Assembly: GCA_919902985.1 (NCBI GenBank)
Contig: CAKKSC010000021.1
Location: 29,676 to 93,675, forward strand
Origin: Desulfuromonadales bacterium
Lineage (GTDB): Bacteria > Desulfobacterota > JAENJC01
DNA length: 64,000 nucleotides
Direction: 5' to 3'
In this document: positions 9,335-60,003 of the stretch, piece by piece
How positions within the stretch are numbered: the stretch's first letter is position 1
Layout: each line of letters begins with the position of its first letter
Notes under the pieces: generated by a model
What the model saw: the letters and a program-made list of their open reading frames with translations, nothing else
Database searches by the model: none
Told to the model about the DNA's origin: nothing
Made by a program: the position numbers and the translations under genes

Positions 9335-9382
9335 ACTCACTCACTCACTCACTCACTCACTCACTCACTCACTCACTCACTC
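9335..9382. repeat. Perfect tetranucleotide microsatellite (ACTC)12
   Basis: actcactcactc... runs uninterrupted for 48 nt in the intergenic region, ~80 nt after the 610-aa gene and ~240 nt before the second cheR. Confidence 0.95.
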
Positions 9383-9576: not shown

Positions 9577-9605
9577 GTAGGGGCGGGTTTGAAACCAGCC
9601 CCTAC
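9577..9605. repeat. GTAGGGGCGGG-loop-CCAGCCCCTAC hairpin (REP-like) in the 5' leader of the second cheR; a sister copy is at 59956..59984
   Basis: A near-perfect palindrome sits immediately after a TATAAT hexamer (9571..9576) and before the AAGAGG RBS. The same arm sequence recurs between panC and panD. Confidence 0.5.
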
Positions 9606-9624
9606 GTGCGCCGCAAGAGGATGT

Positions 9625-20798: not shown

Positions 20799-21947
20799 TT
20801 ATGCCGGAGGTATGATAAAGCTTATCCTTGTTCCTTTACCGTATTCACTTTCGATACTTAACTTCCCACCCATTGATGCTACAAGATGCTTTACAATGGC
20901 AAGTCCCAGGCCGGTTCCGCCCAGTTCTCTTGAGCGGGCAGGGTCAACCCTGTAGAAGCGCTCACCGAGCCTCGGGATATCCTTTGGCGGTATTCCGGTC
21001 CCGGTGTCAGTGACGGAGATTTGTACTAACGCCCCAGAAGTTAAGAGGTTAAGAGGTTGAGAGGTTATTATTCGTGCGTTGATTCTCACTGACCCTTTCT
21101 CTGTGAACTTTATCCCGTTGTCTACGAGATTTAAAAGTATCTGAGCCAGCCTGTCCTTGTCAGAAAGGGCATGGACCCCTTTTTCAATATCCAGTTCAAG
21201 GTTTAGCCCCTTGGCCTTTGCCTTAGGTTCCAGGGTTGAAATAACCATTCTTGCCACTTCTTCGATCTCCACAGCCCTTATATCAAAGCTTACCTTACCG
21301 AGTTCGATGTTGGACAGGGTCAGGAGGTCTTCCACAAGCCTTGAGAGCCTGTCGGCATTCTCCTTTATTATATCAACAAACCTGGCGGCGTGTTCCTTGT
21401 CGTTAATGGCCCCTTCCTTCAACGTCTCAGCAAACCCTTTAATGGCGGTCAGCGGGGTCTTTAGCTCGTGGGATACATTGGCCACAAAGTCTATCCTCAT
21501 TGTCTCAAGTTTTTTGAGCAGGGTTATCTCATGGAAGACTATGACCGAACCGAGTCTTTCAGTATTGCGAATGAGAGGGGTCATTGTCACTGAGAGGCTT
21601 ACGGAATTAGGGGCAGCAATAGTTATTTCTCCGGTTACCGTCTCTCCCTTTTTACTCCCCTCCTCAATGATCCTGTGAAGCTCAGGGTTTCTTGATATCT
21701 CAACAACTCTTTTCTCAAGGAGTTCTTTGCCGAAAAGCTCTTCAGCCTTCCTGTTGGCCATTGTCACGTTCCCTTTGGGGTCCGTAACTATGACCCCCTC
21801 TTCCATACTGGCAAGGATGGCCTCTCTCTGCTCTTTTTCGTCTTTAAGCTTTTCCAGAGTGACCCTTAGTTCAGATGAGAGCCTGGAAAGCTCGGAATCT
21901 GGTTCTTTTTTTCCTGATGGGAAGAGCTTGGTAAACATATCTTTCAA
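20799..21947 (-). CDS. PAS-domain sensor histidine kinase (PAS - HisKA - HATPase_c), PhoR-like core
   Basis: H-box VANVSHELKTPLTAIKGF. N, G1 and G2 boxes are present (NLVDNGIKF, DTGTGI, GTGLGLAIV). Convergent with aspS with only a 7-nt gap. Confidence 0.85.
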   Translation of the reverse strand: MKDMFTKLFPSGKKEPDSELSRLSSELRVTLEKLKDEKEQREAILASMEEGVIVTDPKGNVTMANRKAEELFGKELLEKRVVEISRNPELHRIIEEGSKKGETVTGEITIAAPNSVSLSVTMTPLIRNTERLGSVIVFHEITLLKKLETMRIDFVANVSHELKTPLTAIKGFAETLKEGAINDKEHAARFVDIIKENADRLSRLVEDLLTLSNIELGKVSFDIRAVEIEEVARMVISTLEPKAKAKGLNLELDIEKGVHALSDKDRLAQILLNLVDNGIKFTEKGSVRINARIITSQPLNLLTSGALVQISVTDTGTGIPPKDIPRLGERFYRVDPARSRELGGTGLGLAIVKHLVASMGGKLSIESEYGKGTRISFIIPPA

Positions 21948-30590: not shown

Positions 30591-30649
30591 GGGGACAGTC
30601 CCTATTCTACGACTTCGCTGCGCTTCGTCCGTAAATAGGGACAGTCCCC
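30591..30649. repeat. 59-bp REP-like element, copy 1 of 3 (GGGGACAGTCCC...core...GGGACAGTCCCC)
   Basis: Each end is a GGGAcagTCCC mini-hairpin flanking a 35-nt core (tattctacgacttcgctgcgcttcgtccgtaaat). Lies between phoB and phoU. Confidence 0.8.
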
Positions 30650-30655
30650 TCCGGT

Positions 30656-31342
30656 TCACGGATTTTCCTGCTGCGGCTTTATATGCCTTATCACCTTTCC
30701 CTTGACCATGAAGACCACCATTTCTGCGATGTTTGTGGCGTGGTCTGCAATGCGTTCAAGGTATTTAGAGATGAAAAGGATCTTCATTGCCCTTGATATG
30801 GTGTTGGGGTCCTCCATCATGAATGTCAGGAGTTCCCTGAATATCTGCCTGTTTAGGTCGTCCACAAAGTCATCCTCTGCAAGGACCCTTGTGGCCAGGT
30901 CGGTGTCTCCGTTTACAAAGGCGTCAAGGCTCTCTTTCAGCATCCTCTGGGCGGCCTCGGCCATTCGCGGTATATCTATGTAAGGCTTCAGAGGAGCCTC
31001 CTCGTTAAGCTCAAGGACCCTTTCACAGACGTTTACAGCCATGTCCCCGATCCTTTCAAGGTCGGTGATTATCTTTATGGCTGTTGTGATGAGCCTCAGG
31101 TCTGAAGCAGCAGGTTGACGCAGTGCCAGTACCTTGAGGCAGAGCTCGTCAATCTCAACCTCCAGACCGTTCACCACATGGTCATTCTCAATGGTACTTT
31201 CGGCCAATTGCGTATCCCTTTCCACCAGGGCCTTTATGGAATTAGCAATCCCTTCCTCGACAAGGCCGCCAAGCCGGAGGACCTTCTCCTTGATCAACCT
31301 CAGTTCTTCTTCGTACTGCTTTATTATATGTGTCTCGGACAT
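30656..31342 (-). CDS. phoU: Phosphate-transport system regulatory protein PhoU
   Basis: Two PhoU repeats with the conserved ...LERIGD... motifs. Sits downstream of pstB. Confidence 0.85.
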   Translation of the reverse strand: MSETHIIKQYEEELRLIKEKVLRLGGLVEEGIANSIKALVERDTQLAESTIENDHVVNGLEVEIDELCLKVLALRQPAASDLRLITTAIKIITDLERIGDMAVNVCERVLELNEEAPLKPYIDIPRMAEAAQRMLKESLDAFVNGDTDLATRVLAEDDFVDDLNRQIFRELLTFMMEDPNTISRAMKILFISKYLERIADHATNIAEMVVFMVKGKVIRHIKPQQENP

Positions 31343-31371
31343 ATTTCCTCCAAGTGGCTGATTTCAATACC

Positions 31372-31430
31372 GGGGACAGTCCCTATTCTACGACTCCGTT
31401 TCACTCCGTCCGTAAATCGGGACAGTCCCC
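31372..31430. repeat. 59-bp REP-like element, copy 2 of 3
   Basis: Same termini as copy 1. The core is cgactccgtttcactccgtccgtaaatc, with a few substitutions. Lies between phoU and pstB. Confidence 0.8.
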
Positions 31431-31431
31431 T

Positions 31432-32202
31432 CTATCCAAACCTTCCTGTTATGTAATCTTCTGTAAGTTTGTGAGACGGGACTGTGAAGACCTTTTCCGT
31501 TTTATCGAATTCGATTAGCTCTCCTATATACATGAATGCCGTGTAGTCTGAAACCCTCGCAGCCTGTTGCATATTGTGGGTTACAATTAATATGGTTACT
31601 TCTTTCTTCAACTCAAGTATCAGTTCTTCTATCTTTGCCGTAGCTATTGGGTCAAGGGCCGATGTAGGTTCATCAAATAAAAGTATCTCAGGATCGGTAG
31701 CAAGGGCCCTTGCTATGCAGAGTCTCTGCTGCTGACCACCGGACAGGTTAAAGGCCAGGTCATGGAGCCTGTCCTTTGCCTCTTCCCATATGGCGGCGCC
31801 CCTGAGTGACTTTTCAACTCTTTCATCCAGTTCACTCCTCCTCCGTATCCCCCTCACCTTTGGTCCATAGGCTACGTTTTCGTAAATAGATTTTGGGAAA
31901 GGGTTAGGCCTCTGGAATACCATACTGATCCGCATCCTTACCTCTATGGGGTCGATATCGGGGCCGGCGATATTAAGAGCGTCCGGGTGCAGGATTATCT
32001 CTCCTTCGTACCGGTTGTTAGGGTAAAGGTCATGCATCCTGTTGAAACACCTGAGATAAGTAGTCTTTCCGCAACCGGACGGGCCAATCAGCGCTGTAAC
32101 CTTTTTCTCGGCAATATTGAGATTTATATCTTTTAATGCCTTCACCGAACCGTAATAAAAATTCAGGTTCCTGACCTCTGCCTTGATTTTTTCATCTACC
32201 AT
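31432..32202 (-). CDS. pstB: Phosphate ABC transporter ATP-binding protein PstB
   Basis: Walker [13 protein letters not shown] signature LSGGQQQRL, Walker [13 protein letters not shown]. The N-terminal pattern is typical of PstB. Confidence 0.9.
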
Positions 32203-33122
32203 TTTATCCTCTTTCTGAATCTGTATCTTATGTAAATAGCTATTCCATTCATTATGAGCGTCATGACCAGGAGGATTACTCCGGCAGCAGCTGCATTATG
32301 TTGAAACGCTGCCTCTGGACGGGATGTCCAGTTAAACATCTGTATGGGCATCACAGTAAAAGGATCCATCAGCCACCTGAAGGATACGAAGGGGAAAACG
32401 TCGCTGAAAGGAGACTGCGGCAAGAACGCTATGAATGTCAGAGCGCCGATGGTGATGACAGGGGCGGTCTCTCCTATTGCCCTTGACAGTCCCATTATAG
32501 TTCCCGTAAGTATCCCGCCAAGGGAATACGGCAGGACATGGTCCCTTACCGTCTGCCATTTGGTAGCGCCTAAGGCGTAGGCCGCCTCCCTTATGCTCCC
32601 CGGAACAGCGCGGATGGCCTCCCTTGCAGACACTATGACAATCGGCAATATCAGGAGGGCAAGTGTGAGACCGGCAGAAAGGATGCTCTGCCCGAAGTCA
32701 AGTTTATAGACAAATAACCCCAACGCCAGCAGGCCGTAAACAATGGACGGCACGCCTGCCAGGTTTGTCACATTTATTTCAATTATGGCGGTAAGCCAGT
32801 TTTTTCGGGCATATTCCTCAAGATAGACGGCTGATGCTACGCCGAGGGGAACGGCGGAAGCGGCCGTAACCAGCATGATCAGGGTGGTGCCTACCCATGC
32901 GGAAAGTATCCCTGCTTTTTCCGGGTGACGGGAAGGGAAGGAAGTAAATAACTTCCAGCCTATACGCGGCGCCCCTTCAATTGCCAGTTCCGTAAATAAT
33001 GCCAGTAAGGTCAGAATCCCAACCATGAGTGAGAGGATGCCTACTATGGCGAATATGTGGTCCCAAAGCTTGTGCCGGGCAATCATTCTGCGGATATGGT
33101 CAATGGACTGCTCAGGCATCAA
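32196..33122 (-). CDS. pstA: Phosphate ABC transporter permease PstA
   Basis: Polytopic permease with the [15 protein letters not shown]-loop motif. Overlaps pstB and pstC. Confidence 0.85.
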
Positions 33123-34039
33123 TAAACCTCCCTGAATCGTTTCGCCAGGAAGTAGCCGAGAATATTAAAGATCAGGGTGATCAGCATAAGTGACAGGCCC
33201 GCGACGAATATGGTCTGATACCCGATGCTTCCGTGTGGCAGGTCTCCCAGGCTGACCTGGACAATATATGCGCTAATGGTTGCTGCCGGTTCCATGGGGT
33301 TCAATGTCAGGTTCGGCTGCTGACCTGCGGCTATGGCCACGATCATTGTTTCTCCGACTGCGCGGGATATGCCGAGTATATAGGCGGAGGCAATGCCTGA
33401 AAAAGCGCTTGGTATAATCACCCTGACAGCGGTCTGGAACCTCGTTGCTCCCATGGCATAAGAACCTTCAAGGATGTGTTTCGGAACTGCATGCATGGCA
33501 TCCTCGCTCACTGATGCGATATAAGGCACGATCATTATACCCATAACCAGTCCGGCGCTCAACATATTAAATCCAGGTAAGCCAGGGATGAGCTTTTGCA
33601 TGATAGGGGTCACGAAGATAAGGGCAAAATATCCGAATACAACGGTAGGGACGGCGCCCAGCAGTTCGAGAAATGGTTTTATGATTTCACGCACACGGTG
33701 CGGGGCGAATTCACAAAGATATATAGCAATGGTAGTGCCCAGAGGGATGGCAACCAGCAATGCCACGCCGGTTGTCACAAGGGTGCCTGCCATGAGGGGC
33801 ATGATGCCGTAATGGGCGTCGTCAAACAGCGGCGTCCACTGAATGTCTGTAAGAAAAACAAGCAGCGGGACATGCCTGAAAAACGGGATGGACTCGATGA
33901 CAAGTATTGAGACAATTGCGAATGTGGTGGCTACCGATGACAGAGCGGCAAGGAAAAGGATTGATTCAATAATAAATTCGCGCACACGCCGCAAACGGCT
34001 GCGGCCTGAGTATTTATTGTTAGCTTTGTTTGATGGCAA
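33119..34039 (-). CDS. pstC: Phosphate ABC transporter permease PstC
   Basis: Polytopic permease with the EGSYAMGATRFQT EAA-loop. Sits between pstS and pstA. Confidence 0.85.
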   Translation of the reverse strand: MPSNKANNKYSGRSRLRRVREFIIESILFLAALSSVATTFAIVSILVIESIPFFRHVPLLVFLTDIQWTPLFDDAHYGIMPLMAGTLVTTGVALLVAIPLGTTIAIYLCEFAPHRVREIIKPFLELLGAVPTVVFGYFALIFVTPIMQKLIPGLPGFNMLSAGLVMGIMIVPYIASVSEDAMHAVPKHILEGSYAMGATRFQTAVRVIIPSAFSGIASAYILGISRAVGETMIVAIAAGQQPNLTLNPMEPAATISAYIVQVSLGDLPHGSIGYQTIFVAGLSLMLITLIFNILGYFLAKRFREVY

Positions 34040-34140
34040 GAATTAACACCTTAAGAACATTTATTAAAACAATGGAGTCAAAAAAGACCACCCTTAATCC
34101 CCTCCTTGACAAGGAGGGGAATGGGAAGGTGGCCCGTTTT

Positions 34141-35154
34141 TTAATATATCCCTTCTCTCTTCAGAAGGTCCTTGATCAGCACGCCAACCTCAGCAACGCC
34201 GCCAAAGCCGGTGCCGAGCTTCTTCTTGCCAAATGCCTCTATAACCAGTTTGAAATCTTCCTCAGGGATCGGCACATACTGTACCTCTTTTACCAGTTTT
34301 GCCGCATGTTTGAGGTAGAATTCAACGAACTCCTTGACCTCCGGCTTATTCACGGACTTGGCATTGATGTAGATGAAGATCGGGCGCGCCAGCGGCTGGT
34401 ATGTCCCGTTCATTACCGTTTCGAAAGAAGGAGAGACTGCCGGTTTACCTTCCTTTTCCACTATAGGAACGGCCTTCAGCTTTTCTGTGTTTTCGGCATA
34501 GTAGGCATAACCAAAGTAACCAAGGGCATTGACATCGCGGCTTACGCCCTGGACCAGGACGTTATCGTCCTCGCTTGCAGTGAAATCGCCCCTGCTTGAC
34601 TTGGCCTTGCCAACAATGGCCTCGGTAAAGTAGTCAAAGGTGCCGGAATCGGAGCCGGCGCCGAAAAGGTTCAGCGGCGCATCAGGCCATGCAGGGTTGA
34701 CCTGGTTCCACTTCGTTATTTTACCCTGGGCGGCAGGTTCCCATATCTTCTTGAGTTCAGCAACGGTCATGCTTTTGATCCAGTCGTTCTTCGGGTTTAT
34801 CACTACTGTAAGAGCGTCGTATGCCACAGGCAGCTCAATATATTGAATGCCCGCCTGCTTGCATATCTCCATCTCCTTTGTGAGTATCGGGCGCGAGGCG
34901 TCCTGAATATCGGTTTCGCCGCGGCAGAACTTTTTAAAACCGCCTCCTGTCCCGGATATTCCTACCGTGACCCTGGCAGAGCCTCTCTTTTCCTTCTGAA
35001 ACTCCTCGGCGACAGCCTCGGTTATCGGATACACGGTGCTTGAACCGTCAATCTTTATGACTGGAACAGCAGCATGAGCTGTAACAGTGAACGTTGAATA
35101 GTAAATAGTGAATAGTGAAACCAGAAGCAGTAAGTGTAGCTTTGAAATTTTCAT
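34141..35154 (-). CDS. pstS: Phosphate ABC transporter substrate-binding protein PstS
   Basis: Signal peptide, then the PstS/PBP fold (IDGSSTVYPI...ISGTGGGFKKF...). The ORF is open to 35175, but the GGAGG RBS fits the ATG at 35154 (MKISKLHLL). Confidence 0.85.
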   Translation of the reverse strand: MKISKLHLLLLVSLFTIYYSTFTVTAHAAVPVIKIDGSSTVYPITEAVAEEFQKEKRGSARVTVGISGTGGGFKKFCRGETDIQDASRPILTKEMEICKQAGIQYIELPVAYDALTVVINPKNDWIKSMTVAELKKIWEPAAQGKITKWNQVNPAWPDAPLNLFGAGSDSGTFDYFTEAIVGKAKSSRGDFTASEDDNVLVQGVSRDVNALGYFGYAYYAENTEKLKAVPIVEKEGKPAVSPSFETVMNGTYQPLARPIFIYINAKSVNKPEVKEFVEFYLKHAAKLVKEVQYVPIPEEDFKLVIEAFGKKKLGTGFGGVAEVGVLIKDLLKREGIY

Positions 35155-35202
35155 TTTTCCTCCATTTGCTAACATTTTACCAGCAGAGTATGCCAGAGAA
35201 AT

Positions 35203-35235
35203 GTTACAGTTATATTACAGTTCCCTTAAAATTGT
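35203..35235 (-). promoter_or_regulatory. Pho-box-like array upstream of pstS: GTTACA / ATTACA / CTTAAA hexamers at exact 11-bp phasing
   Basis: On the plus strand the hexamers start at 35203, 35214 and 35225. Read on the gene's coding strand they are TGTAAC-type repeats 49-80 nt upstream of the pstS ATG. This resembles PhoB/PhoP boxes (E. coli CTGTCAT-N4 repeats; B. subtilis TT(A/T/C)ACA repeats). Confidence 0.6.
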
Positions 35236-35260
35236 CAAGCCGTGCTTCTACCCCATCCCC

Positions 35261-35350
35261 GCCCTGACCCTCTACCCACAGGGCATAAACCCTTGAAGGG
35301 GAGGAACTTTTTTCCTCTCCATCAGGGAGAGGATTAAGGTGAGGGTAGGG
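35261..35350. repeat. ~100-bp GC-rich palindromic element, inverted copy of 7269..7367
   Basis: See the paired feature. Located between the porin gene stop and the pstS promoter. Confidence 0.6.
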
Positions 35351-35356
35351 TAATCT

Positions 35357-36601
35357 TTAGAAGTACAACTGGGCCTGTACCTGATAGACATCTTTTTTGG
35401 CTGCATCCGCTAAATAGCCGCTCGCGTTTTTGCCGTAGGATGAATTTACCCAGTTGGCGCCAATCTTGAAGCTGTGGCCTTTGCCGTACCAGTTTACACC
35501 TATGGTGGTGTCCTTTTCCTCAGTGTCATCCGCACCGGCGGCCGCATTGGAGTTGTGGTCATAGATTTCATACCTTACAACAGGCTCAAGGTTTATGCCG
35601 GGGATGAAGTAACCTGCCTGCGCATACCAGCCCGTCGGCTCCTTGTCACTTGTTGCTGCATTGCTGTAATCGATCTTCCATGCCGTATATTCGCCCTGAA
35701 GGGTAAGGCCTCCAAAGTGGGCCGAGATGTCCACTCCCATAAGGGTCCTGCTCTCGCTGTCGCCGCTGGCGCCTGTGTATTCTATGGAGCCCTGTGATGC
35801 AGTGCTGAAGCCGAGGGTTACATGCTGTCCTTCTCCAAGATGAGCGTCGCTCTTACCCTTCTCCACAAATCCAGGAGGTGAGACCTCTACCCTTCCCATA
35901 AAGACCGGGTTGGACTTTTGGACTTTTACATCTGTAGAGGTTGTAGTAACAACACCAGTTGTGAGGTCTGCAGTAGATGTGCTTGTTCCTGTTTTAATTA
36001 TGTTCTTGTTCTCCCATCCGTCTGCCGTTGCCAGATTGTAAGATATCATCCCTTCCGCAATGCTGCCGTGGAGCATGGCATTGGTCTGGTAGTAGTCATC
36101 GAAAAGCTTCTTTGCCGCCTCTGTGGATACCGGCCTCTCAATCAGGAGCTGCTTTGATGAAGAGGTGAGGGATATCCTTGAGTATGGAAGCTTTGCCTTC
36201 CCGAAGCGGAGGTTAGCGGTATCCGCAAACTTATAGTCAAGATATGCATACAGCACCTTGACTTCATTTGCAGCGGATGCACTGGTGCTCCCACTCTTGC
36301 CGTTCTTGTCCATCTCCAGGGTCAGGTTGTACTTCAACTCCTTTGTAAGCTTTCCGTCCATCTCAAGGCGGAGCCTCCTGAGATACATATCCGTTTCGGA
36401 CTCATAGGACTTCCCGTCCTTGCTTGTTATCAGGTCGCCCATATCAAACCTCGGCTGCATGCGGGTCCTGATGCTGAAGTCGGTATCATCGCTGATCTTT
36501 ACCTTAAGTCCCTTTGTCTCCTCGCCCATTGCAAAATCCTGAGCAAATGCCGGCGCGGTCATTGAGAGCGCCAGAGTTAATGCTAATAACGTTTTTTTCA
36601 T
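35357..36601 (-). CDS. Outer-membrane beta-barrel porin, probably a phosphate-selective porin O/P family member
   Basis: Signal peptide (MKKTLLALTLALSMTAPAFA). Alternating amphipathic beta-strand character and a C-terminal ...QAQLYF aromatic terminus. Adjacent to the pst operon. Confidence 0.55.
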   Translation of the reverse strand: MKKTLLALTLALSMTAPAFAQDFAMGEETKGLKVKISDDTDFSIRTRMQPRFDMGDLITSKDGKSYESETDMYLRRLRLEMDGKLTKELKYNLTLEMDKNGKSGSTSASAANEVKVLYAYLDYKFADTANLRFGKAKLPYSRISLTSSSKQLLIERPVSTEAAKKLFDDYYQTNAMLHGSIAEGMISYNLATADGWENKNIIKTGTSTSTADLTTGVVTTTSTDVKVQKSNPVFMGRVEVSPPGFVEKGKSDAHLGEGQHVTLGFSTASQGSIEYTGASGDSESRTLMGVDISAHFGGLTLQGEYTAWKIDYSNAATSDKEPTGWYAQAGYFIPGINLEPVVRYEIYDHNSNAAAGADDTEEKDTTIGVNWYGKGHSFKIGANWVNSSYGKNASGYLADAAKKDVYQVQAQLYF

Positions 36602-36655
36602 CTGTTTTTCTCCTTTTTTATTTGATTTTACATCTTACGTCTTTCGTCTAACGTC

Positions 36656-37009
36656 TCACTTGGTCTCATGCCTCTTGTCATATTCCTTCTGTGCCAGTTC
36701 AGACTCGAAGATCACGGTTTCGCTGTTCGGGCCATAACCGAAACCGCTTACAGGCTTTCCGCCGAGCTTCCCTGTATTTTCCCATGCAGCCTTTGCCTTA
36801 GGCGAGACGAAGACATAAATCTTTTCGTCCTTTGGCACCTCAAAGTAGGCATTTGCTTTTTCTTTGCCCGGAACGAGCTTACCGCCATCCAGCTTGAAGT
36901 ATTCGACAGTCGGTTCTGCCGGCGCCTTGGCTGTCTGTGAAGTTGCGCAGCCGCTGATCAGCCCGGCCACGAGCAATCCAATTAAAGTGATGTATCTTTT
37001 AACCCTCAT
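36656..37009 (-). CDS. Small lipoprotein of unknown function
   Basis: Signal peptide with lipobox LISGC. 117 aa. Lies immediately upstream of, and co-directional with, the porin gene. Confidence 0.5.
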   Translation of the reverse strand: MRVKRYITLIGLLVAGLISGCATSQTAKAPAEPTVEYFKLDGGKLVPGKEKANAYFEVPKDEKIYVFVSPKAKAAWENTGKLGGKPVSGFGYGPNSETVIFESELAQKEYDKRHETK

Positions 37010-37059
37010 TTATTCACCCCCTTTCATTTAAGATTTTTCTGTTTTTCATCTCTGATGAA

Positions 37060-37190
37060 GTCGTAAAAAGTCCGAGAAATACTTTTTTTTCGTCATTCCG
37101 GCGAAAGCCGGAATCCAGTGATTTTAAATAGTTATAAAAATCCTGGACACCGGTTTTCACCGGCGAGACGACTTTTTACGAGACCATCAT
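37060..37190. repeat. Structured ~130-nt element bounded by a perfect 12-bp inverted repeat (TCGTAAAAAGTC / GACTTTTTACGA) containing two internal hairpins
   Basis: Internal hairpins are TTCCGGCgaaaGCCGGAA and CACCGGttttCACCGG. It lies in the long leader between a Pho-box-like array (37323..37361) and the lipoprotein gene. Confidence 0.4.
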
Positions 37191-37322
37191 CTCTAACACA
37201 GCCACCCTACTTCCTTTTACCCCGAACTTTATTTGTCCCTCCTGCCTCATCCTGCCGGTAGCATCGGCAAGAGGAAGCAGAAGGAAACGGCGGGTAGAAC
37301 GAGGCCAGTATAGTTTAGGATT

Positions 37323-37361
37323 GTTACGGTGTTATTACGGGAATATTAAGATTAGGTTACA
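37323..37361 (-). promoter_or_regulatory. Pho-box-like array: GTTACG / ATTACG / ATTAAG / GTTACA at 11-bp phasing
   Basis: Hexamers start at 37323, 37334, 37345 and 37356. It lies ~310 nt upstream of the lipoprotein-porin unit and just 3' of the response-regulator gene stop. Confidence 0.5.
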
Positions 37362-37719
37362 ATAGGTATGTGGCTACCTTCCTCTTTAAATCAAAGATGT
37401 CTCCTTTGCATATATATCCCTTTACCCTGCACTCTGCCACCGCTCTCCTCAGGCTGTCCTCATCATTGGAGGAATGAAAGACGATAGGCACATCACACCT
37501 TTGAAGCACCAGCTTTGCGAGGTTGTCACCGGAGAGGGCGGGCATGTTTATATCAAGCAGGACAATATCCGGCCGGGATGTGGTGATGCGATTTATGACT
37601 CCAAATCCGCTGACATGGGTGGCTACATCATATCCCTCAGCAGTCAACAACTCCTTCGTTGCCATTAGCAGCATCTCATCATCATCTACAACAAGAATCT
37701 TCTTTTTAAACTTTTCCAT
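37357..37719 (-). CDS. Single-domain CheY-like response regulator
   Basis: REC signature (ILVVDDDE...VLLDINMPALSG...IVFHSS...K). 120 aa. Confidence 0.8.
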   Translation of the reverse strand: MEKFKKKILVVDDDEMLLMATKELLTAEGYDVATHVSGFGVINRITTSRPDIVLLDINMPALSGDNLAKLVLQRCDVPIVFHSSNDEDSLRRAVAECRVKGYICKGDIFDLKRKVATYLL

Positions 37720-38905
37720 GATCTATTACCTCCTCTTTTGAGTTTTTTATCGGCAGATGGACTTCAAACGAAGTCCCCTCCCCGAACCTGCTTGATACCG
37801 AAATAGAGCCTCCCAACAAATCCACAAGGTTTTTTGTTATTGTCAGGCCGAGTCCTGTCCCTTCATGCCTTTTTGTCTTTGCATCCTCAACCTGGCTGAA
37901 CGCCGTGAAGAGCTTGTCGAGGTCTGCCTCTTTTATCCCTATTCCCGTATCCTTGACAGATATCGCAACCATCTCTTCCCCAGCGGTCACTGCCAGTGTC
38001 AATCTTCCCTTGTCTGTGAATTTTGCCGCATTGCTTGTAAGATTTATCAGTATCTGACGGACTTTGATGGGATCGGAGACCGTAAATACGGGGCCGTCGT
38101 GGGCAACCACCTCAACATCGACCGGCTTGTTCCCTACGAGAATCCTTGCAGTCTCCGCCACTTCCCGAAGAAGAGGTATAATGTCAAAAGTCTCAAGGAA
38201 GACGTCCATCTTTCCCGCCTCAATCTTGGAAAGGTCGAGGATGTTGGTAATAATGGTCCTCAGATGGGTTGCGCTTGACATCATGACGGACAGGCGGTCC
38301 CTCAGTTGGCCTATGTCGCTTTTTTCGGAAGAAATCCTCATCAGTTCCGCCAGACCGATGATGGCGTTCACCGGCGCCCTTAGCTCATGTGTGACATGGG
38401 CAATAAACTGGGACTTCACCTGATTCACTTTTTCAAGTTCCTTCGCCCTCTCCCGCGCCATCTCTTTCTGAACAACGCTGTTTGCAAGGGCATGGCTCTG
38501 GTGGATCACCATCTGCTTCACTGATAGAAGCCCCTTGTAACGGTTGTCCCAGTCCACCAGCATGATTTCGTCATAGATGTCCTGGTCAGGCCTTGACAAT
38601 GCCCTGTCTATGGCGATGTCAAGCTTTTCGTCTTCTCTCATAATGAGGGGATTTGTGTCCGCAATAGCAATGATGGGCTTTTTGCCGAAAAGTTCAAACC
38701 CGAACCTTCGGAACAATGTAAACAGGAGCTTGGGCCTTGTAACGAGCCCCACAGGTCTTCCATCATCAACCAGAGCTACGGCGTCAAGGGTGGTAGATTG
38801 GTAAAACCTGTCTGCCACGTGGCCGGTAAGCGTGGTCGGAGAGAGCCATTCTTTTGATGTAATAAGGCTTCCGATAGGTTGCGAATCGGTCTGTAATGGT
38901 TCCAT
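37706..38905 (-). CDS. Sensor histidine kinase with N-terminal CBS-pair-like domain (HisKA + HATPase_c)
   Basis: H-box FIAHVTHELRAPVNAI. N, G1 and G2 boxes (LTSNAAKFT, DTGIGI, GTGLGLTITKNL). The ORF is open to 38995, but a GGAGA RBS precedes the ATG at 38905. Overlaps the RR gene by 14 nt. Confidence 0.75.
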   Translation of the reverse strand: MEPLQTDSQPIGSLITSKEWLSPTTLTGHVADRFYQSTTLDAVALVDDGRPVGLVTRPKLLFTLFRRFGFELFGKKPIIAIADTNPLIMREDEKLDIAIDRALSRPDQDIYDEIMLVDWDNRYKGLLSVKQMVIHQSHALANSVVQKEMARERAKELEKVNQVKSQFIAHVTHELRAPVNAIIGLAELMRISSEKSDIGQLRDRLSVMMSSATHLRTIITNILDLSKIEAGKMDVFLETFDIIPLLREVAETARILVGNKPVDVEVVAHDGPVFTVSDPIKVRQILINLTSNAAKFTDKGRLTLAVTAGEEMVAISVKDTGIGIKEADLDKLFTAFSQVEDAKTKRHEGTGLGLTITKNLVDLLGGSISVSSRFGEGTSFEVHLPIKNSKEEVIDHGKV

Positions 38906-39032
38906 ATCTTTCTCCGGCAAAGTCCCCGTGTATTGGGAATTTATTCTTGTTCTTCCCCCGCCCGATCTACCGGTAGCAGGGCCGCCGGGCCGCACATACC
39001 AATGGTCAGGTCTTGAAAAATCAGTCAGCCTG

Positions 39033-39515
39033 TCAAACCAGCTCCAATCGCCCCTTCGTAAATCCCCCTTTGCCCACTTTGTAAAGGGGGGTAATGGTTA
39101 AGAGTTTTTCCGCGAAAAAGGATAAGAGCCTATCCTTTATCTCATCCCGCACATGGCGGAATTCATACATAATCTCCTCTTCGCTGCCAATAGCGCCTGC
39201 CGGGTCCGAAAAGCCTATATGGGTTATCTCCACCCCGCCGAAAAAGTAGGGACATGTCTCATGAGCGCTGTCGCACAGGGTGATGACGTAATCGAAGGTT
39301 TGATCTTGAAATTCAGACATCTCTTTTGAGCGATGTCCGGAGATGTCTATCCGTATCTCCTTCATGACTGCGATCGCACGGGGATTGACGTAAGTCGCCC
39401 TGGTCCCTGCTGAAAAGGCCTCTATCCTGTCTCCCAGGAAGTGGTTTACAATCCCCTCAGCCATCTGGGAACGGCATGAGTTTGCGGTGCAAAGGAATAG
39501 TACTCGTTTTTTCAT
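39033..39515 (-). CDS. Low-molecular-weight phosphotyrosine phosphatase / ArsC-type arsenate reductase family protein
   Basis: P-loop signature LCTANSCRSQMAEG (C-X5-R) near the N-terminus, typical of LMW-PTP/ArsC (Trx-type). Confidence 0.7.
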   Translation of the reverse strand: MKKRVLFLCTANSCRSQMAEGIVNHFLGDRIEAFSAGTRATYVNPRAIAVMKEIRIDISGHRSKEMSEFQDQTFDYVITLCDSAHETCPYFFGGVEITHIGFSDPAGAIGSEEEIMYEFRHVRDEIKDRLLSFFAEKLLTITPLYKVGKGGFTKGRLELV

Positions 39516-39708
39516 CTTATGCTCAATTCAGCGAAATATTTATTCACTGGTCCTCTTGAGAAGAGCAAGCCTTTCCAGGACTATTTCTATTATCCTGAAA
39601 GTCTTAGCGACAACTTGTTTCGGGAACCTTCCTGGTCTCGTCAGGCGATACCTCCACACCAGCAGGCCGTTTCTGATCCTGTCATCTGCCATATTTCTAA
39701 ATATCTGT

Positions 39709-40731
39709 CTATATCTTTTTAACATCGATTCTCTTCCGCACAGCCTCACGGAGCGAATCCATTGTCGGGCATAGCTCCGCAAGATTCTTTCTGCTCAAAA
39801 AGGTCATATTCTCTGTCTCAGGGCCGGGAAGGGGAGGGCGGCAGGCTATCATTGGCAAACCCTTTACCAGGCATTCTGCTACCGTAGCCCCTCCCGGCTT
39901 TGTAATGCAGAGATCACTTATATCCATCAGCTCGTACATATTCTCAATATAGCCAAATACAAAGAGACGAGGATAGTTTTGTTTTAACAGGTCGAGCCTC
40001 TGCCTCAGCTTTTCATTTCTGCCTGTCACTATGAGGCACTGAACTGGAAACTCCTTTAAGACCTTGACAACATCTTCTATCCTCCCCAGCCCCTCTCCGC
40101 CTCCCAGGACAAGCACTGTATAAGTTTCAGGTTTCAGGTCCGGATCAATTTTCCTGCAGAGCTCTTTTCTGTTCCCCTTTCTGTGAAAAACCTGTCTTAC
40201 AGGAAAGGGCTTCACCACTATAGTCATTTCCGGTACGCCGTTCAGTATCATCCTCTCTCTCAGTTCTTCAGTGGCCACAGAAAAGCAGTCCAGGCGGCAG
40301 GTGTTCCAGTATGTGTCGTCAAGGAAATCGGTCAGGACTCCATGAACGGCCTTTATTGATGGGTATCTCGCTTTTAATTCGGATGAAGCCATGGCGCAGA
40401 AGACATGCGTGGATATGATCAGGTCCGGCGAAAAGTTGTTGACAAACTTTTCCATCTTCTTTAGATAAGGCCTGAAGAGAAGATTCGAGAACCATTTATA
40501 TTCGGCAAACCTTTGATAAAAGAAGTGGTACGCGCCAGGTGTAAATCTGATTGTTGAAAAATAGAAGGCGCTCCTTAGTTTGTCTCTCAGCCCTCCGTCA
40601 TAACTCAAAAAATCCACAACCCGGACATCCGCGCCTGGGAAGTCACGACAGACAGATTCAGCCAGTGCCTCTGCCGCCATATTGTGGCCTGAACCGTAGC
40701 CGATGGTCGCGATCAATATTTTTTTATACAT
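39709..40731 (-). CDS. GT28-family glycosyltransferase (MGDG-synthase / processive diacylglycerol glycosyltransferase-like), a candidate glycolipid synthase
   Basis: The N-terminus IATIGYGSGHNMAAEAL and overall length match bacterial/plant MGDG-synthase-like (UgtP/MGD) enzymes. Co-operonic with the PAP2 and DAG-kinase-like genes. Confidence 0.6.
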   Translation of the reverse strand: MYKKILIATIGYGSGHNMAAEALAESVCRDFPGADVRVVDFLSYDGGLRDKLRSAFYFSTIRFTPGAYHFFYQRFAEYKWFSNLLFRPYLKKMEKFVNNFSPDLIISTHVFCAMASSELKARYPSIKAVHGVLTDFLDDTYWNTCRLDCFSVATEELRERMILNGVPEMTIVVKPFPVRQVFHRKGNRKELCRKIDPDLKPETYTVLVLGGGEGLGRIEDVVKVLKEFPVQCLIVTGRNEKLRQRLDLLKQNYPRLFVFGYIENMYELMDISDLCITKPGGATVAECLVKGLPMIACRPPLPGPETENMTFLSRKNLAELCPTMDSLREAVRKRIDVKKI

Positions 40732-41259
40732 CTACCCGATCACCCATATCAGGGTGCTGGACACCCCTATCCCTATGAGGCCCCCGACGATGACATCGGT
40801 CGGATAATGGAGCGACAGAAAGACCCTGGAGATGGCAATTAGGGACGCCATGACGAAAAGCGGAATAAACAGTAGCGGGAAGAACCAGGCCGCTGCCGTT
40901 GCAATGGCAAAGGCGTTTATTGAATGACCGGATGGGAATGAGTATTCATCAGGCGGTGGAAGGATAAACTCCATGTCTACGTAAGTCTCAAAGGGCCTCT
41001 TTCTTGTAGTGCTGTGCTTGATGGCCTTAAATACCGCCACGCACAGGATGACCGATATGATTCCTATTAATACAGCTTTCTGCCCGTCACTGCCCCCAAA
41101 TATGAGCAAAGACAGGCTCAGGAAGAGCCATATTGGGCCGTCCCCCAGCTTGCTTGAAATGACCATCAGGTCGCTTAGCCACCGGTGCGACTTGAGGTCC
41201 CCCAGACGGTAACTTATGAGAGAGTCGTATTTATATATTGTTTCCATAATTACTGCCAT
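40732..41259 (-). CDS. PAP2-family (type 2 phosphatidic acid phosphatase) membrane phosphatase
   Basis: All three PAP2 motifs are present: KxxxxxxRP (KHSTTRKRP), PSGH (FPSGHS) and SRxxxxxHxxxD (SRVFLSLHYPTD). Confidence 0.75.
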   Translation of the reverse strand: MAVIMETIYKYDSLISYRLGDLKSHRWLSDLMVISSKLGDGPIWLFLSLSLLIFGGSDGQKAVLIGIISVILCVAVFKAIKHSTTRKRPFETYVDMEFILPPPDEYSFPSGHSINAFAIATAAAWFFPLLFIPLFVMASLIAISRVFLSLHYPTDVIVGGLIGIGVSSTLIWVIG

Positions 41260-41279
41260 ATATTCCTCCTTAACTATTC

Positions 41280-41338
41280 GGGGACAGTCCCTATTCTACG
41301 ACTTCGCTGCGCTTCGTCCGTAAATTGGGACAGTCCCC
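41280..41338. repeat. 59-bp REP-like element, copy 3 of 3
   Basis: The core is identical to copy 1 (tattctacgacttcgctgcgcttcgtccgtaaat) with the same GGGACAGTCCC termini. Lies between the PAP2 and DAG-kinase-like genes. Confidence 0.8.
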
Positions 41339-42208
41339 ATCTTTCGGAAGGATTACTGTTATGCCTTCCTCTGCTGTTGAAAACTCAGCGGGCAACTGCC
41401 CCACCACATCCCCGTCAGCCTGTATGTAAGTCTTTCCTTTTGATGTTATCTTTAGACTCTTTACCGTGTGATATTCAACATCAGGGTACGTCAGATGCCT
41501 GTTTCGCATGACGCCCCATGTATACCTAAGTATGTTCCCGAACCCCTTGCTCTTGAATATGCATACATCCAGATCATTTCGTTCCATATCCGCAAAGGGG
41601 GTTATAGATATGGTCCCGCCATAATATTTCATATTCCCAACTACTGTCCCGTAACCATTGATCTTCTTGCCGCTGTCAAGCTCTATCTCCAGAGGGGAGG
41701 ACCGATAGGTCAACCCCCTCCCTAGTGCGGTCAGGAGATAAGACAGCCTTCCTGAGAGCCGCTTGAGCCTGACATCAAGGCCGTAAACCACATATGCATC
41801 AAACCCGACGCCCCCCATCAGGAGAAAATAGCGGCCGTTGACCCTTCCAAGGTTTAGCTTTCTTGGCAAACCTTCAAGAATGATGTTGCAGGCCCCTACA
41901 GGGTCCATAGGGATGCCAGTTTCAAGGGCGAATACGTTGACAGTCCCCAGAGGGATGACGCCAAGCGGAATGTCCGAGCCTGCAAGACCGTTTATGATCT
42001 CATTTATGGTCCCGTCCCCGCCTGCGCCTACCACAATATCAACATTTTGGCAGCGAGCATCCCTTGCTGCCTGAAGGGCATCCCCCCTCTTGCTTGTCTC
42101 ATAGAGGTGGACCGTTGCGCCTCTTAGTCTCAAATATGCCCTGACCTGCAGGATGATGTCCTTACCGCCTCGTCCTGCAGTAGGGTTTGCAATAAGTTTA
42201 ATAACCAT
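41291..42208 (-). CDS. Diacylglycerol-kinase catalytic-domain lipid kinase (YegS/BmrU family)
   Basis: Has the GAGGDGT-type motif in IVVGAGGDGTINEIINGL and the overall DAGK_cat layout. Confidence 0.75.
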   Translation of the reverse strand: MVIKLIANPTAGRGGKDIILQVRAYLRLRGATVHLYETSKRGDALQAARDARCQNVDIVVGAGGDGTINEIINGLAGSDIPLGVIPLGTVNVFALETGIPMDPVGACNIILEGLPRKLNLGRVNGRYFLLMGGVGFDAYVVYGLDVRLKRLSGRLSYLLTALGRGLTYRSSPLEIELDSGKKINGYGTVVGNMKYYGGTISITPFADMERNDLDVCIFKSKGFGNILRYTWGVMRNRHLTYPDVEYHTVKSLKITSKGKTYIQADGDVVGQLPAEFSTAEEGITVILPKDGDCPNLRTKRSEVVE

Positions 42209-42407: not shown

Positions 42408-42460
42408 CTACATTACCTTCTGATTTGGAATTATATATGATGAGATTTTAACAGGCAGAT

Positions 42461-42499
42461 GTTACGGAATAGTTACAGGGAAATTAAGATTTGGTTACA
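42461..42499 (-). promoter_or_regulatory. Pho-box-like array: GTTACG / GTTACA / ATTAAG / GTTACA at 11-bp phasing
   Basis: Hexamers start at 42461, 42472, 42483 and 42494. The nearest repeat is 54 nt upstream of the small Cys-protein ATG (42407). A TATATAAT-like -10 hexamer lies between the array and the ATG. Confidence 0.6.
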
Positions 42500-42527
42500 A
42501 TTCGCATGTTTTTTATAGATCGAACTT

Positions 42528-48803: not shown

Positions 48804-48879
48804 CCCACCGAACCTCCCCTTACCAAGGGGAGGAATTAAATATTCCCCTCCTTGGCAAGGAGGGGCTAGGAAGGTGGTT
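48804..48879. repeat. GC-rich CCCCTCC...GGAGGGG hairpin cluster (REP-like), one of about seven similar hairpins in the window
   Basis: ccaccccacc...cccttaccaaggggagg...cccctccttggcaaggagggg...ggtgg. Similar CCCCTCCC/GGGAGGGG hairpins occur near 25316, 25770, 26446, 27836, 52868 and 62935. Confidence 0.6.
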
Positions 48880-50073: not shown

Positions 50074-53000
50074 TGTTTCACCTCGCTTTTTGTCGCCTCA
50101 TTTACCACCAGCGGAAGAAATGCGCTCCCCCCGATAACAAGACCGTCAACAATGCTTAACGGAGCAATTCCAAGGAGACCTCGCAACCCCGGCACTACAA
50201 GGGTCAATCCCTGCAATGCAAAGGAACCGGCCAGGGCGGCGTTCAGATAGCCGTTGGACTGCATGCCCGATCCGGGGGCACTATCGAAGATCCCATGTGT
50301 CTCCGACCTGCAGCTTAACGCATGAAGAAGCTGTCCGGAGGTCAGACTCATAAATGCCATGGTGCTTGCCTGCGGCCCAATTCCATACCTCATAATGCCG
50401 TATCCATATGCGCTGAGGGCCCCGGCTGAAAGCACTGAGGACTCGAAGAAAATCCGCTTGAAATCAGAACTCTTTACAATCGGCTCATCGGGGTCCCTTG
50501 GGGGGCGTGTAAGAACGTCCGGTTCCGGCGGCTCCATTGCCAGGGCAAGGCCTGGCGCTATATCGGACATGATATTGATCCATAAGAGCTGAATTGCGCT
50601 CAACGGCTCTCCAAAGCCTCCGGCGATAGATGTGAACATGACCGTTATCTCACTGATATTCGTGGAAAGAAGGAAATGGACAGACTTCCTTATGTTGTGG
50701 TAGATGGTCCTCCCCTGACTTATGGCAATGATCATGGTTTCAAGGTTGTCATCCTCAATCACGACATCCGCAACCTCGCGGGCTACATCGGTTCCGGTCT
50801 GCCCCATGGCTATCCCCACGTCTGCTGCTTTCAAAGCCGGGCCGTCGTTAATCCCGTCACCCGTCATGGCGACAACCTTGCCGGCCCTTTGAAAGGACTG
50901 GACTATCTGGAGCTTATGGGCCGGACTGACCCTGGAGAAGACCCGGACCCTCTCGCACAGGGCCGTCAACACCTTGGGATCCATTTCTTTCAGGTGGGAA
51001 GAGTCAAGTATCTCAAGCTGCTCCTCCATGCTGAGATTCAACTCTTTCCCGATAGAGTAGGCGGTGGGGCTCTGGTCGCCGGTGATCATGACCGTATCAA
51101 TACCTGCTGCATGGAATTTGCCTATCAGTTCTTTAACGCCTTTACGGACAGGGTCTGCCATGCCTACAAGGCCCAGCCATATAAGGTCGTATGAGGTCGA
51201 GAGGTCGAGAGGTTGAGAGGTTGAGAACTCCTCATCATCACAGATTCTCAACTTCTCATCTTCTGAATGAGTATAAGCCATGCCGAGAACCCGCAATGCA
51301 TCCCCTGCCATGCGCTCATTCACAGTCTCTATAGAGAAACGGTCGTTGTCGGTCAAAGGAAGTTTTTGGCCGTCTTTTATAAACCAGTTACATTGAGAGA
51401 GCACCTCATTGGGGCTCCCCTTTACCGCCGCCAAAAGTCTCTGTCCACCTGTCCCTTCTGCTGATGCATGATAGGAAACCATGTAGTTGCGGTTTTCGGA
51501 GCGGTGGACCATCCTGGTCAGCGGAAATTTCTTCCTTAGGCGGTCTATATCAACGCCGGTGCTGATTGCCATATGCAGCAGCGCATTCTCGGTAGACGAA
51601 CCGTTCAGGATGTATTCTCCATCGTTCATGGTTACCTCACTCTCATTGCACAGTACTGATATATGAATTAACCTGAGCAATTCGTCGTTGGAGTAAGGAT
51701 TTACGATGCCGTTTCCGGAAACAAAATTATTTTCAGAGATCCTTATATGTTTCATTCCGGTGTGTATTGCAACAACCGACATCCTGTTCATGGTAACGGT
51801 CCCTGTCTTGTCAAGGCAGATGGTCTGGACCGCACCCAGCGCCTCCACAGCGTCAAGATGCCTTATCAGGACGTTGTGTCTGCGCATCTTTCGAATGCCT
51901 AAAGCCAGGGTGGTTGTTGCGACCGTTGGAAGACCTTCCGGAACTGCGGCAACGGCCAGGGATATGGCAGACTTAAACATATGAAGAAAACCGTATCCTC
52001 TAAGAATGCCTGCAATGAATACTATGCCGCACACACCGCCGCAGATAAGCACTATTTGAGTGCCTATAGTATCAAGTTGTTTTTCCATGGGAGTTTGAGG
52101 AGGCCTTGTCCCGCCGACCAGGATTTGAATCATCCCTATCTCTGTATATCTGCCGGTGGCAATAATCACAGCCAGCCCCTGTCCGCCGGTAACGAGGGTC
52201 CCCATGTAGACGATGTTCGTCCTGTCCGCAAGAGGGATATTCTCGTCGGATGCAATAATTTCAGCCGTCTTGATAGCAGGCATACTTTCGCCTGTGAGGG
52301 CCGATTCGTCGACGCTTAAGTGTGTGGCCTCTATAAGTCTGGCATCTGCTGCCACATAACTTCCAGGTCTAAGGACAATAATGTCGCCAGGCACAAGTTT
52401 ACCGGCATTTATATTAGTGTAAAGGCCGTCTCTTATAACAATGGCTGACGGTCTGACAAGGCTCTTAAGGGAATGGATCGTCCTTTCCGTCTGCATTTCG
52501 GTAAAATACCCTATGGCCGCATTTATGCCTACTACACCAATTATAACCGCCGCATCAGCCACTCCTCCGGTAAAAATGGATATGCCAGCGGCCACTCCCA
52601 GGAGCGCTACAGGCAAAGATTTAAACTGTTCAAACAGCACGCTGAGCCCGGAGCGCGGGACAGACTCAGGGAGAAGATTCGGGCCGAATCTTTTTGTCCT
52701 GTCACTGACCGATTCAACAGTTAATCCGTTTTTCCGGTCAGTACCCATCAGATCAAGGACCTGGGCAGTACCCATAAGGTGCCAGGCTTCTACCGGCTGT
52801 TCCTGAGCACTGTTAATCAGCTTTCTGAGGGCCGGTCTGCCTGTTATCGGGGAGAAGCCAACTAACTTTTCCCCCCCTTTAGAAAAAGGGGGAGAGGAGG
52901 GGTTTGGTGTCTCAGGATTACTATTGTTGAAATAATCAATTACTACGCTTTCAAGGAGAGATGCAATGTCATTGGATGTATTCCCGGAGTTGAAGAGGAC

Positions 53001-55379: not shown

Positions 55380-55422
55380 AAAAACCCCCTCATTTTGATC
55401 TGCTACACTTTAAACTATAAAT

Positions 55423-55461
55423 ATTACAAGATTGTGACAGTTGCATTAAGATTTGGTTACA
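55423..55461 (-). promoter_or_regulatory. Pho-box-like array: ATTACA / GTGACA / ATTAAG / GTTACA at 11-bp phasing
   Basis: Hexamers start at 55423, 55434, 55445 and 55456. The nearest repeat is 44 nt upstream of the ATG at 55379. A TATTTATAG -10-like element follows. Confidence 0.6.
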
Positions 55462-57130: not shown

Positions 57131-57177
57131 ACGTTTATCTCCTTTTTATGATTTCAGATGGAGTTTAACAAAGGATT

Positions 57178-57216
57178 GTTACGGGTTTATGACGGATAGG
57201 TTAAGATTTAGTTACA
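57178..57216 (-). promoter_or_regulatory. Pho-box-like array: GTTACG / ATGACG / GTTAAG / GTTACA at 11-bp phasing
   Basis: Hexamers start at 57178, 57189, 57200 and 57211. The nearest repeat is 48 nt upstream of the PsiE-like ATG (57130). It lies in the intergenic region shared with the divergent intI gene. Confidence 0.55.
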
Positions 57217-57243
57217 ATTTTAATTAAAAGGATTTTCTGTGTT

Positions 57244-59959: not shown

Positions 59960-59984
59960 GGGCGGGTTTCAAACCCGCCCCTAC
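59956..59984. repeat. Perfect 12-bp-stem hairpin GTAGGGGCGGGT-ttcaa-ACCCGCCCCTAC overlapping the panC stop codon (REP-like; sister of 9577..9605)
   Basis: The palindrome is read directly from the sequence. No U-tract follows it, so it is not a canonical intrinsic terminator. Confidence 0.6.
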
Positions 59985-60003
59985 AATTCATGGAGGGGTA
60001 GAA

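Follow-up and report, generated by a model that had tools for sequence, protein, structure and literature searches.

A REPIN-like hairpin element at three operon junctions of an uncultured groundwater bacterium and its dispersed family

In Escherichia coli, repetitive extragenic palindromic (REP) elements affect mRNA stability and translation. Classical REPs have been reported to differ between bacterial lineages. A REPIN consists of two inverted REP units with a short spacer between them, able to fold into one long hairpin (PMC3337134). The transposase TnpAREP acts on the folded single strand, needs the GTAG tetranucleotide and a mismatch in the stem, and cuts at a CT beside the REP; in Marinomonas REPs, the GTAG lies 2 nt from the palindrome (PMC8266576). 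The terminal inverted repeats (TIRs) flanking the "TIRYT" tyrosine transposases share the consensus GGGGWSAS, and dimers and clusters of these repeats are known, above all from Planctomycetes and Acidobacteria; intragenic REPs, REP dimers that encode 20-30 residues within open reading frames (ORFs), and REP termini that supply TAG stop codons are also known (PMC3733652). Here we compare with these systems a 59-bp element found in three copies in a 64-kb stretch of a Desulfuromonadales contig (the window, i.e., the whole stretch analysed), the sequence of which matches Hainich groundwater assemblies. We consider it probable that the three copies are a non-autonomous, hairpin-forming mobile element of the REP/REPIN type. 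The genes around them are all on the minus strand, and the copies are placed as follows:

30591-30649, plus strand: copy 1, an exact pattern match, at the junction of phoU and the gene of a phoB-like regulator
31372-31430, plus strand: copy 2, at the pstB/phoU junction
41280-41338, plus strand: copy 3, one base off copy 1, at the junction of the DAGK (YegS-like) and PAP2 genes
41291-41338, minus strand: the element-encoded C-terminal tail of the kinase, GDCPNLRTKRSEVVE followed by a TAG stop (15 codons plus the stop codon)

An earlier sequence-only reading of the window had placed three 59-bp copies in the same orientation at these coordinates, and both an exact pattern match and a covariance model bear this out. 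The model (R1), built from 73 family members, scored copies 1, 2 and 3 at 84.1, 84.3 and 84 bits, and found no fourth copy in the 64 kb, the next best match reaching 17 bits. The 35-nt cores of copies 1 and 3, which had been called identical, are nearly so, with a single difference at the last core base (A versus T). Copy 2 is 87% identical to copy 1 over 63 nt and differs from copies 1 and 3 in its apical stem (GT-TTC-AC instead of GC-TGC-GC). Exact matches to the terminal 11-mer GGGACAGTCCC number six in the window, all of them at the ends of the three copies; allowing up to one mismatch on both strands gave 12 matches versus 1.06 expected, a number reached in 0 of 100 shuffles.

Folding on either strand gave one long imperfect hairpin as the minimum-energy structure, with base pairing between the two 11-mers around a central A.A mismatch (U.U on the other strand) and one bulged C per arm. 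The proposed mini-hairpin at both ends is therefore not what the element forms, and two independent mini-hairpins per copy are ruled out by the folding. The transcribed (minus) strand, whose folding had been suggested as a check, is stable at about -30 to -34 kcal/mol: copies 1, 2 and 3 have energies of -34.3, -31.4 and -30.1 kcal/mol and z-scores of -5.0, -4.5 and -5.9. The plus-strand layout is G-GGGACAGTCCC-TAT-T(C)TACG-AC-apical loop-GT-(C)CGTA-AATA-GGGACAGTCCC-C; in the mRNA, which is read from minus-strand genes, the element has the GGGACUGUCCC form. As in a REPIN, inverted units form a single hairpin, with ~21 bp between the arms and a covarying stem at the apex. From the centre outward, the bottom-strand arm reads 5'-CGTAG-AATA-GGGACTGTCCCC and the top-strand arm 5'-CGTAA-ATAG-GGACAGTCCCC; across the family, the arms are GTAG-AATN-GGGACTGTCCCC and GTAA-ATNN-GGGACAGTCCCC. 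The unit is thus 5'-GTA(G/A)-4 nt-GGGAC(W)GTCCC-C-3', i.e., a tetranucleotide, a 4-nt spacer and a 5-1-5 palindrome, and each 59-60 nt copy is two such REP-like units arranged tail to tail around a small variable stem-loop. On the 3' side of the A-form strand, C follows at +1 in 102 of 122 members and T at +2 in 87 of 122. In the flanks, the only preferences are C at -2 and T at +2, which are neither complementary nor repeated. A covariance search with Rfam 15 found nothing overlapping the elements, even at E up to 10.

These features recall the REP/REPIN-RAYT systems of E. coli, Pseudomonas and Stenotrophomonas (Nunvar 2010; Bertels & Rainey 2011; Ton-Hoang 2012; Corneloup 2021), which likewise have short palindromes, two inverted units in one long hairpin, conserved stem irregularities and a CT beside the unit. 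Their palindromes follow a GTAG tetranucleotide, to which that of the present unit is similar; they are multi-copy, as the present element seems to be, lie mostly between operon genes, and have units flanking Y1 transposase genes, which for the present unit was seen in other genomes. The element differs from classical REPs in the sequence of its unit and in a core 13-mer that is common across phyla. It also differs from the REP/REPIN-RAYT systems in that its tail-to-tail dimer has a covarying mini-hairpin as spacer and no RAYT of this lineage was identified. It further resembles the TIRtron/TIRYT systems (Di Nocera, De Gregorio & Rocco 2013, PMC3733652), since GGGGACAG fits the GGGGWSAS of their inverted repeats; TIRYT hosts include Planctomycetes and Acidobacteria, and dimers or clusters of their repeats are found at other genomic positions as well. 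That text gives only the 8-nt consensus, and neither it nor the supplements examined contain the full 13-mer, the conserved mismatch, the TCTACG...CGTAA dimer family or the present hosts.

The same structure is widespread. Scanning metagenomes with the pattern GGGACAGTCCC-N3-TCTACG-N5-30-CGTAA-N3-4-GGGACAGTCCC returned at least 125 distinct instances in at least 120 loci, 47-70 nt long, with main size classes of 48 nt and 57/58 nt among the matches listed. The basal part is nearly invariant, while the inner stem is swapped wholesale for other complementary pairs (GGC/GCC, GCCCC/GGGGC, GAGTCG/CGACTC and GCTCCGAC/GTCGGAGC, for example), and the extra C ahead of CGTAA is kept in every member listed. 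Among the 73 aligned members of 59/60 nt, 97.9% of the cells are paired, double-sided changes occur at each pattern-free position (15-47, 22-40, 27-34, 28-33 and the terminal 1-62), and the covariation score was matched by no shuffle. The terminal G...C pair itself covaries (GC 52, AU 5, UA 1) and therefore belongs to the element, and the covariation of the inner stem points to a folded strand. The central base was followed in viral contigs with an unbiased test, comparing the same centre in both 11-mers with complementary centres. The 45 AA/TT stretches against 5 AT and 9 TA imply that the central mismatch is a conserved feature of the superfamily. Family-bearing contigs carry about one further copy per 59 kb, which, extrapolated from these contigs, suggests tens of copies per genome. 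A BLAST search of the element against plasmid and phage collections gave no match.

Each of the three copies is missing in relatives whose flanking proteins are 86-97% identical, and copy 3 shows what its arrival did. The kinase of the window has 305 residues, compared with 291 in homologues at 86-88% identity, the stop codon of which abuts the PAP2 start (L247, L249) or lies 4 nt ahead of it (L250). The GGGACNGTCCC motif is absent from the kinase/PAP2 junction of these three relatives, which thus represent empty sites. The DAGK/YegS-like ORF of the window (41291-42208, minus strand) extends 45 nt into copy 3 and takes its TAG stop from within the element, so that the proposed intercistronic placement holds only in part for copy 3. 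In-silico removal of the 59 nt gave a kinase of 291 residues ending in ...ILPKDE*, followed by AAGGAGG and ATG. Copy 3 replaced the ancestral final residue and stop with a 15-residue element-encoded tail, making the protein 14 residues longer overall. As the removal restores the ancestral frame, stop and Shine-Dalgarno sequence, the insertion was precise, and no target-site duplication is visible at the reconstructed site, GAT|GAA.

The two pst junctions vary in a similar way. Relatives with 93-97% identical PhoU differ at the sites of both copy 1 and copy 2. Copy 1 is absent in L252 and L254, and the phoU-phoB spacer of L254 is 27 nt long and contains a solo GGGACTGcCCC. At the copy 2 site, L252 has an identical left junction and one 11-mer, followed by a different hairpin repeat, and L253 and L254 have unrelated small repeats. 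Three independent assemblies end 21-22 nt into copy 1. The solo 11-mers at these sites are more simply taken as deletion footprints, although this is not proven. The 11-mer was also considered as a pre-existing duplicated target, and this was rejected because the empty sites of copy 3 lack the motif and the host proteins of in-frame members are unrelated. Taken together, the comparisons show a conserved hairpin that is dispersed, independent of particular genes, polymorphic between close relatives and able to insert precisely, and that landed recently in three tight junctions, pstB/phoU, phoU/phoB and lipid kinase/PAP2.

Other sequences are found at the same junctions. In L253, with a 93% identical PhoU, a nucleotidyltransferase/HEPN toxin-antitoxin pair lies between phoU and phoB (2245-2962), another sign that this junction is an insertion hot spot. 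A hairpin repeat, CCCCTCCTTGACAAGGAGGGG, occurs in the window at 34095-34128 (pstS/pstC junction) and 48841-48874, and a repeat of this type adjoins a solo GGGACTGTCCC at the pstB/phoU junction of L252 (~1420-1470). A palindromic repeat of ~106 nt is present at 35249-35354 (porin/pstS junction) and, inverted, at 7264-7369, the two being 90% identical. Each of the junctions porin/pstS, pstS/pstC, pstB/phoU and phoU/phoB thus holds a repeat of some family.

The contexts of family members were classified with crude ORF calls, and loci were dereplicated by flanking-protein homology. Of the intergenic members, 41 match the window in presenting GGGACTGTCCC on the sense strand, and 7 have the opposite orientation. 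The genes flanking members elsewhere are unrelated to phosphate metabolism, and this scatter among unrelated genes marks the element as a dispersed selfish repeat and not a regulon-specific signal. Inside long ORFs, 22 independent members were counted, with orientations of 16:6. On each strand, two of the three reading frames of the element are free of stop codons. In-domain inserts were found in the anticodon-binding domain of IleRS (L173, Pfam), in a ManC nucleotidyltransferase (L234, Pfam), in an Eco57I-type methylase (L185, Pfam) and, as 48-, 48- and 66-nt variants at the same site, in orthologous family-9 (GT9) heptosyltransferases (L148, L202, L227); a MiaB-like enzyme and CobB/CobQ carry inserts in interdomain linkers. 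In-frame insertions of both the 48-nt and the 58-nt class are difficult to reconcile under one definition of the element ends. The ManC member (L234, 694-762) has an internal duplication, with GACTGCGTCCGTAAATCTGGG present twice, giving 69 nt and keeping the frame.

Such in-frame palindromic inserts in protein genes resemble the Rickettsia palindromic elements (RPE) and the intragenic REPs of Opitutus terrae, which add ~17-30 residues in loops or linkers and some of which supply a neighbour's stop codon. The likeness, seen in IleRS, the GT9 heptosyltransferase, ManC and the Eco57I-type methylase, is one of behaviour only; we take the element to be unrelated in sequence to RPE. It is also shorter, at 48-70 nt, than RPE-1 (~100-150 nt), and in the window only a C-terminal tail is affected.

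A connection to transposases came from searching all ORFs of the fetched loci with E. coli RayT as probe. Five Y1 transposase-like ORFs were found (Pfam Y1_Tnp), with NCBIfam REP_Tyr_transpos scores of 79.7 and 81 bits (cutoff 80). In four of these, GGGACWGTCCC units border the ORF, frequently as close pairs: L087 (Planctomycetota), L077 (Eubacterium) and L268 have them on either side, no more than ~150 nt away, and in L032, where the locus ends, they occur only upstream, ~150-220 nt from the start. Two further homologues, P0263 (66% identical; six contigs, L330-L335) and P0241, are likewise flanked by units on both sides, and the contigs with this arrangement include L337 (Firmicute-like, as is L077); a third homologue, P0274, has no such flanks. 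The unit-flanked proteins are only 27-29% identical to each other. The terminal 13-mer GGGGACWGTCCCC therefore accompanies RAYT-like genes in Planctomycetota, a Firmicute and marine contigs; in several phyla, RAYT-like genes are flanked by the same repeat that forms the terminal unit of the element. Because the arms have the form GTA(G/A)-4 nt-palindrome-(CT) and the 13-mer is found at RAYT-like genes, the element is best read as a REPIN. By analogy with the known systems, it would be mobilised in trans via single-stranded DNA by a single-copy Y1 HUH transposase (RAYT/TIRYT) encoded elsewhere in the genome; the target of this enzyme would be the folded, mismatched 13-mer, with cleavage at the flanking CT.

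Several observations weigh against this reading. GTAG is present on one arm only, the other having GTAA, and it lies 4 nt from the palindrome. About a quarter of the members that could be classified fall within coding sequence (28 of 93 in frame within long ORFs), so that the family is not strictly extragenic. The orientation bias relative to transcription (41:7 and 16:6) may reflect selection at the RNA level and not transposition; it would stem either from strand-specific transposition combined with gene-strand bias or from selection on the transcript. The window contains no RAYT-like ORF in its 64 kb, and no RAYT flanked by the 13-mer was found on the contigs carrying the TCTACG subfamily. 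The only RAYT on a TCTACG-family contig (L229) is flanked by the classical REP GTAGGGGAGGGGCTTGTCCCCTCCC, a 50%-identical RAYT (L336) has different flanking repeats, and 16 of 17 RAYT-like loci in viral contigs carry other repeats.

A second repeat of the window, of the classical GTAG type (GTAGGGGCGGGTTTGAAACCCGCCCCTAC), was noted at 9566-9606, 17729-17769 and 59945-59985. Repeats of the same type occur in L229 (3983-4008 and 4528-4555) and L241 (1201-1230). In L229, GTAGGGGAGGGGCTTGTCCCCTCCC stands on both sides of the RAYT gene in inverted orientation, a textbook REPtron.

The strongest competitor of a mobile REPIN is a domesticated intercistronic RNA element, i.e., an RNase III/RNase E site, a 3'-exonuclease barrier or a translation attenuator that sets the PstB/PhoU/PhoB and kinase/PAP2 ratios. 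The placement of the copies invites this explanation. All three lie within operons, 10-30 nt ahead of the next start codon and 0-7 nt from, or over, the upstream stop codon; copy 1 is 7 nt from the phoU stop and 10 nt from the ATG of the phoB-like regulator gene, and copy 2 is 1 nt from the pstB stop and 29 nt from the phoU ATG. The stability of the hairpin on the transcribed strand and the strong bias of intergenic members towards one orientation point the same way, as does one intergenic site retained in five diverged contigs (L134, L142, L172, L197, L233), where the core has changed and is still paired. The effects of REPs on mRNA stability and translation in E. coli offer an analogy (such work is among the references listed in PMC6006769). 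However, relatives with 96-97% identical PhoU have no elements at these junctions or have unrelated repeats there, the family lies beside unrelated genes and inside proteins in both orientations, and copy 3 damaged the C-terminus of the kinase instead of sparing it. Neither an Rfam family nor a tie to the Pho regulon was found. We regard domestication as unlikely.

The sequence-only reading had left a choice between a mobile miniature element and RNA structures tuned to the pst-phoU-phoB and lipid operons. The first alternative gains support from the metagenome loci with unrelated genes, the compensatory changes, the absence from relatives and the assembly breaks, and the second loses it, since no association with the Pho regulon was seen elsewhere and the junctions of relatives differ. 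That reading had itself named a plain repeat family lacking operon preference as the outcome that would argue against operon specificity, and such a family is in essence what was found; specificity for Pho operons is refuted. Incidental effects of the mobile element on mRNA are nevertheless plausible. As the copies lie so close to, or over, the upstream stop codon, they may stabilise the upstream mRNA or depress translation. By analogy with known REPs, a hairpin of ~-30 kcal/mol near the stop could, as a side effect, shield the upstream mRNA from 3' exonucleases, and it could likewise lower translation of the upstream cistron (pstB, phoU or the kinase gene).

A classical miniature inverted-repeat transposable element (MITE), derived from a DDE-type insertion sequence and moved by cut-and-paste through its TIRs, is much less likely still. 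The ends are inverted repeats, GGGGACAGTCCC...GGGACAGTCCCC, and the size and non-coding nature would fit, but copy 3, the sole reconstructible junction, has no target-site duplication, and no longer element with these ends was found in 1.7 Mb of family-bearing loci, in which apparent solo ends proved to be mutated full copies. Moreover, the ends flank Y1/RAYT-like genes and not DDE transposases, and the conserved central mismatch points to recognition of a folded strand. The Correia (NEMIS) and ERIC repeats are similar to the present element in being co-transcribed hairpin repeats at operon junctions, and their RNA form can be processed and alters the stability of neighbouring cistrons in an orientation-dependent manner; unlike it, they are longer and of the MITE kind, having TIRs and duplicated targets (TA for Correia). 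A double-stranded protein-binding site (a palindromic operator, GGGAC-N-GTCCC twice) or a transcription terminator is scarcely credible: the 11-mer is indeed a near-perfect palindrome duplicated 46 nt apart, but the element occurs in coding sequences and operon junctions of unrelated genes and is polymorphic among close relatives, its inner stem covaries as expected of a folded strand, and there is no U-tract, no T-run following any copy on the transcribed strand.

Beyond the TCTACG family, a looser genome scan for two GGGACAGTCCC motifs 25-55 nt apart, with a calculated chance expectation of ~2 in 596 Gb, gave matches that, among those listed, belong to Planctomycetota, Omnitrophota, Prevotella, Firmicutes, Actinomycetota, Acidobacteriota and Nitrospirota. 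The hairpin core differs from group to group, and tandem arrays occur among the matches. A literature search for the 11- and 13-mers returned only eukaryotic primers and no bacterial context. Tentatively, and with some doubt, we suggest that GGGGACWGTCCCC, with its obligatory central W.W mismatch, is a pan-bacterial recognition module of one branch of RAYT/TIRYT Y1 transposases that has repeatedly been built into lineage-specific REPIN-like dimers. In Nitrospirota-like/"Deltaproteobacteria" groundwater bacteria, Planctomycetes, Prevotella and other bacteria, such dimers may have spread into operon junctions and essential proteins. If true, a REP system would have been conserved across phyla or exchanged between them, in contrast to the picture of strictly vertical, lineage-specific REPIN-RAYT systems. 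The combination of a cross-phylum 13-mer, a conserved mismatch and divergent RAYT-like genes is only partly anticipated by the published GGGGWSAS. Tandem arrays of the unit GGGGACAGTCCCC were also seen in other phyla, 5-7 units long and with a period between 25 and 57 nt, in L069 (Metabacillus bambusae), L119, L040, L063 and L026; some of them alternate between two different spacers.

The finding in the window is real and ordinary in kind: the uncultured groundwater lineage carries what is probably an element of the REP/REPIN class, one that behaves like RPE in relatives. For annotators, it means that such hairpins are to be recorded as selfish repeats and not as Pho-regulon signals, and it accounts for the 14-residue extension of the kinase and for the contig breaks of the lineage. 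It also adds a structurally constrained REPIN-like family from uncultured groundwater and sediment bacteria, in which REP biology is essentially unstudied, and connects the terminal 13-mer of this family, in several phyla, with genes of RAYT-like transposases. Near-identical Hainich populations differ in whether the copies are present, a polymorphism that could be used as a strain marker and that provides a natural experiment on the response of operon expression to hairpins inserted beside stop codons.

The gene names used here (phoB, phoU, pstB, PAP2 and DAGK), which had been assigned from the sequence, are backed by Pfam matches of the neighbours to response regulator/Trans_reg_C, PhoU, ABC_tran, PAP2 and DAGK_cat. 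The pst operon on the minus strand comprises pstS, pstC, pstA, pstB, phoU and the phoB-like regulator gene, and further genes on this strand encode the YegS/DAGK-type lipid kinase, the PAP2 phosphatase and an MGDG-synthase-like glycosyltransferase. A 47-nt GTTAC-rich motif occurs at 37317-37363, 42455-42501, 55417-55463 and 57172-57218, upstream of minus-strand operons that include the porin-pst and lipid-kinase operons. These are probably the "Pho boxes" of the sequence-only reading, and their distribution suggests that the genes for phosphate uptake and for phospholipid-to-glycolipid remodelling may be co-regulated. The GC skew of the window tracks gene orientation and is uninformative on the direction of replication. 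Short tandem repeats, consisting of the octamers GAGGTTAA/GAGGTCGA and (ACTC)n, lie at 21029-21074, 51185-51230 and 9327-9390. The adjacent PAS/sensor-kinase segments at 13707-15197 and 16456-18480 are paralogues that are 73-79% identical over ~1.3 kb, and shorter, coiled-coil-like coding repeats recur at 10470, 12901 and 29775.

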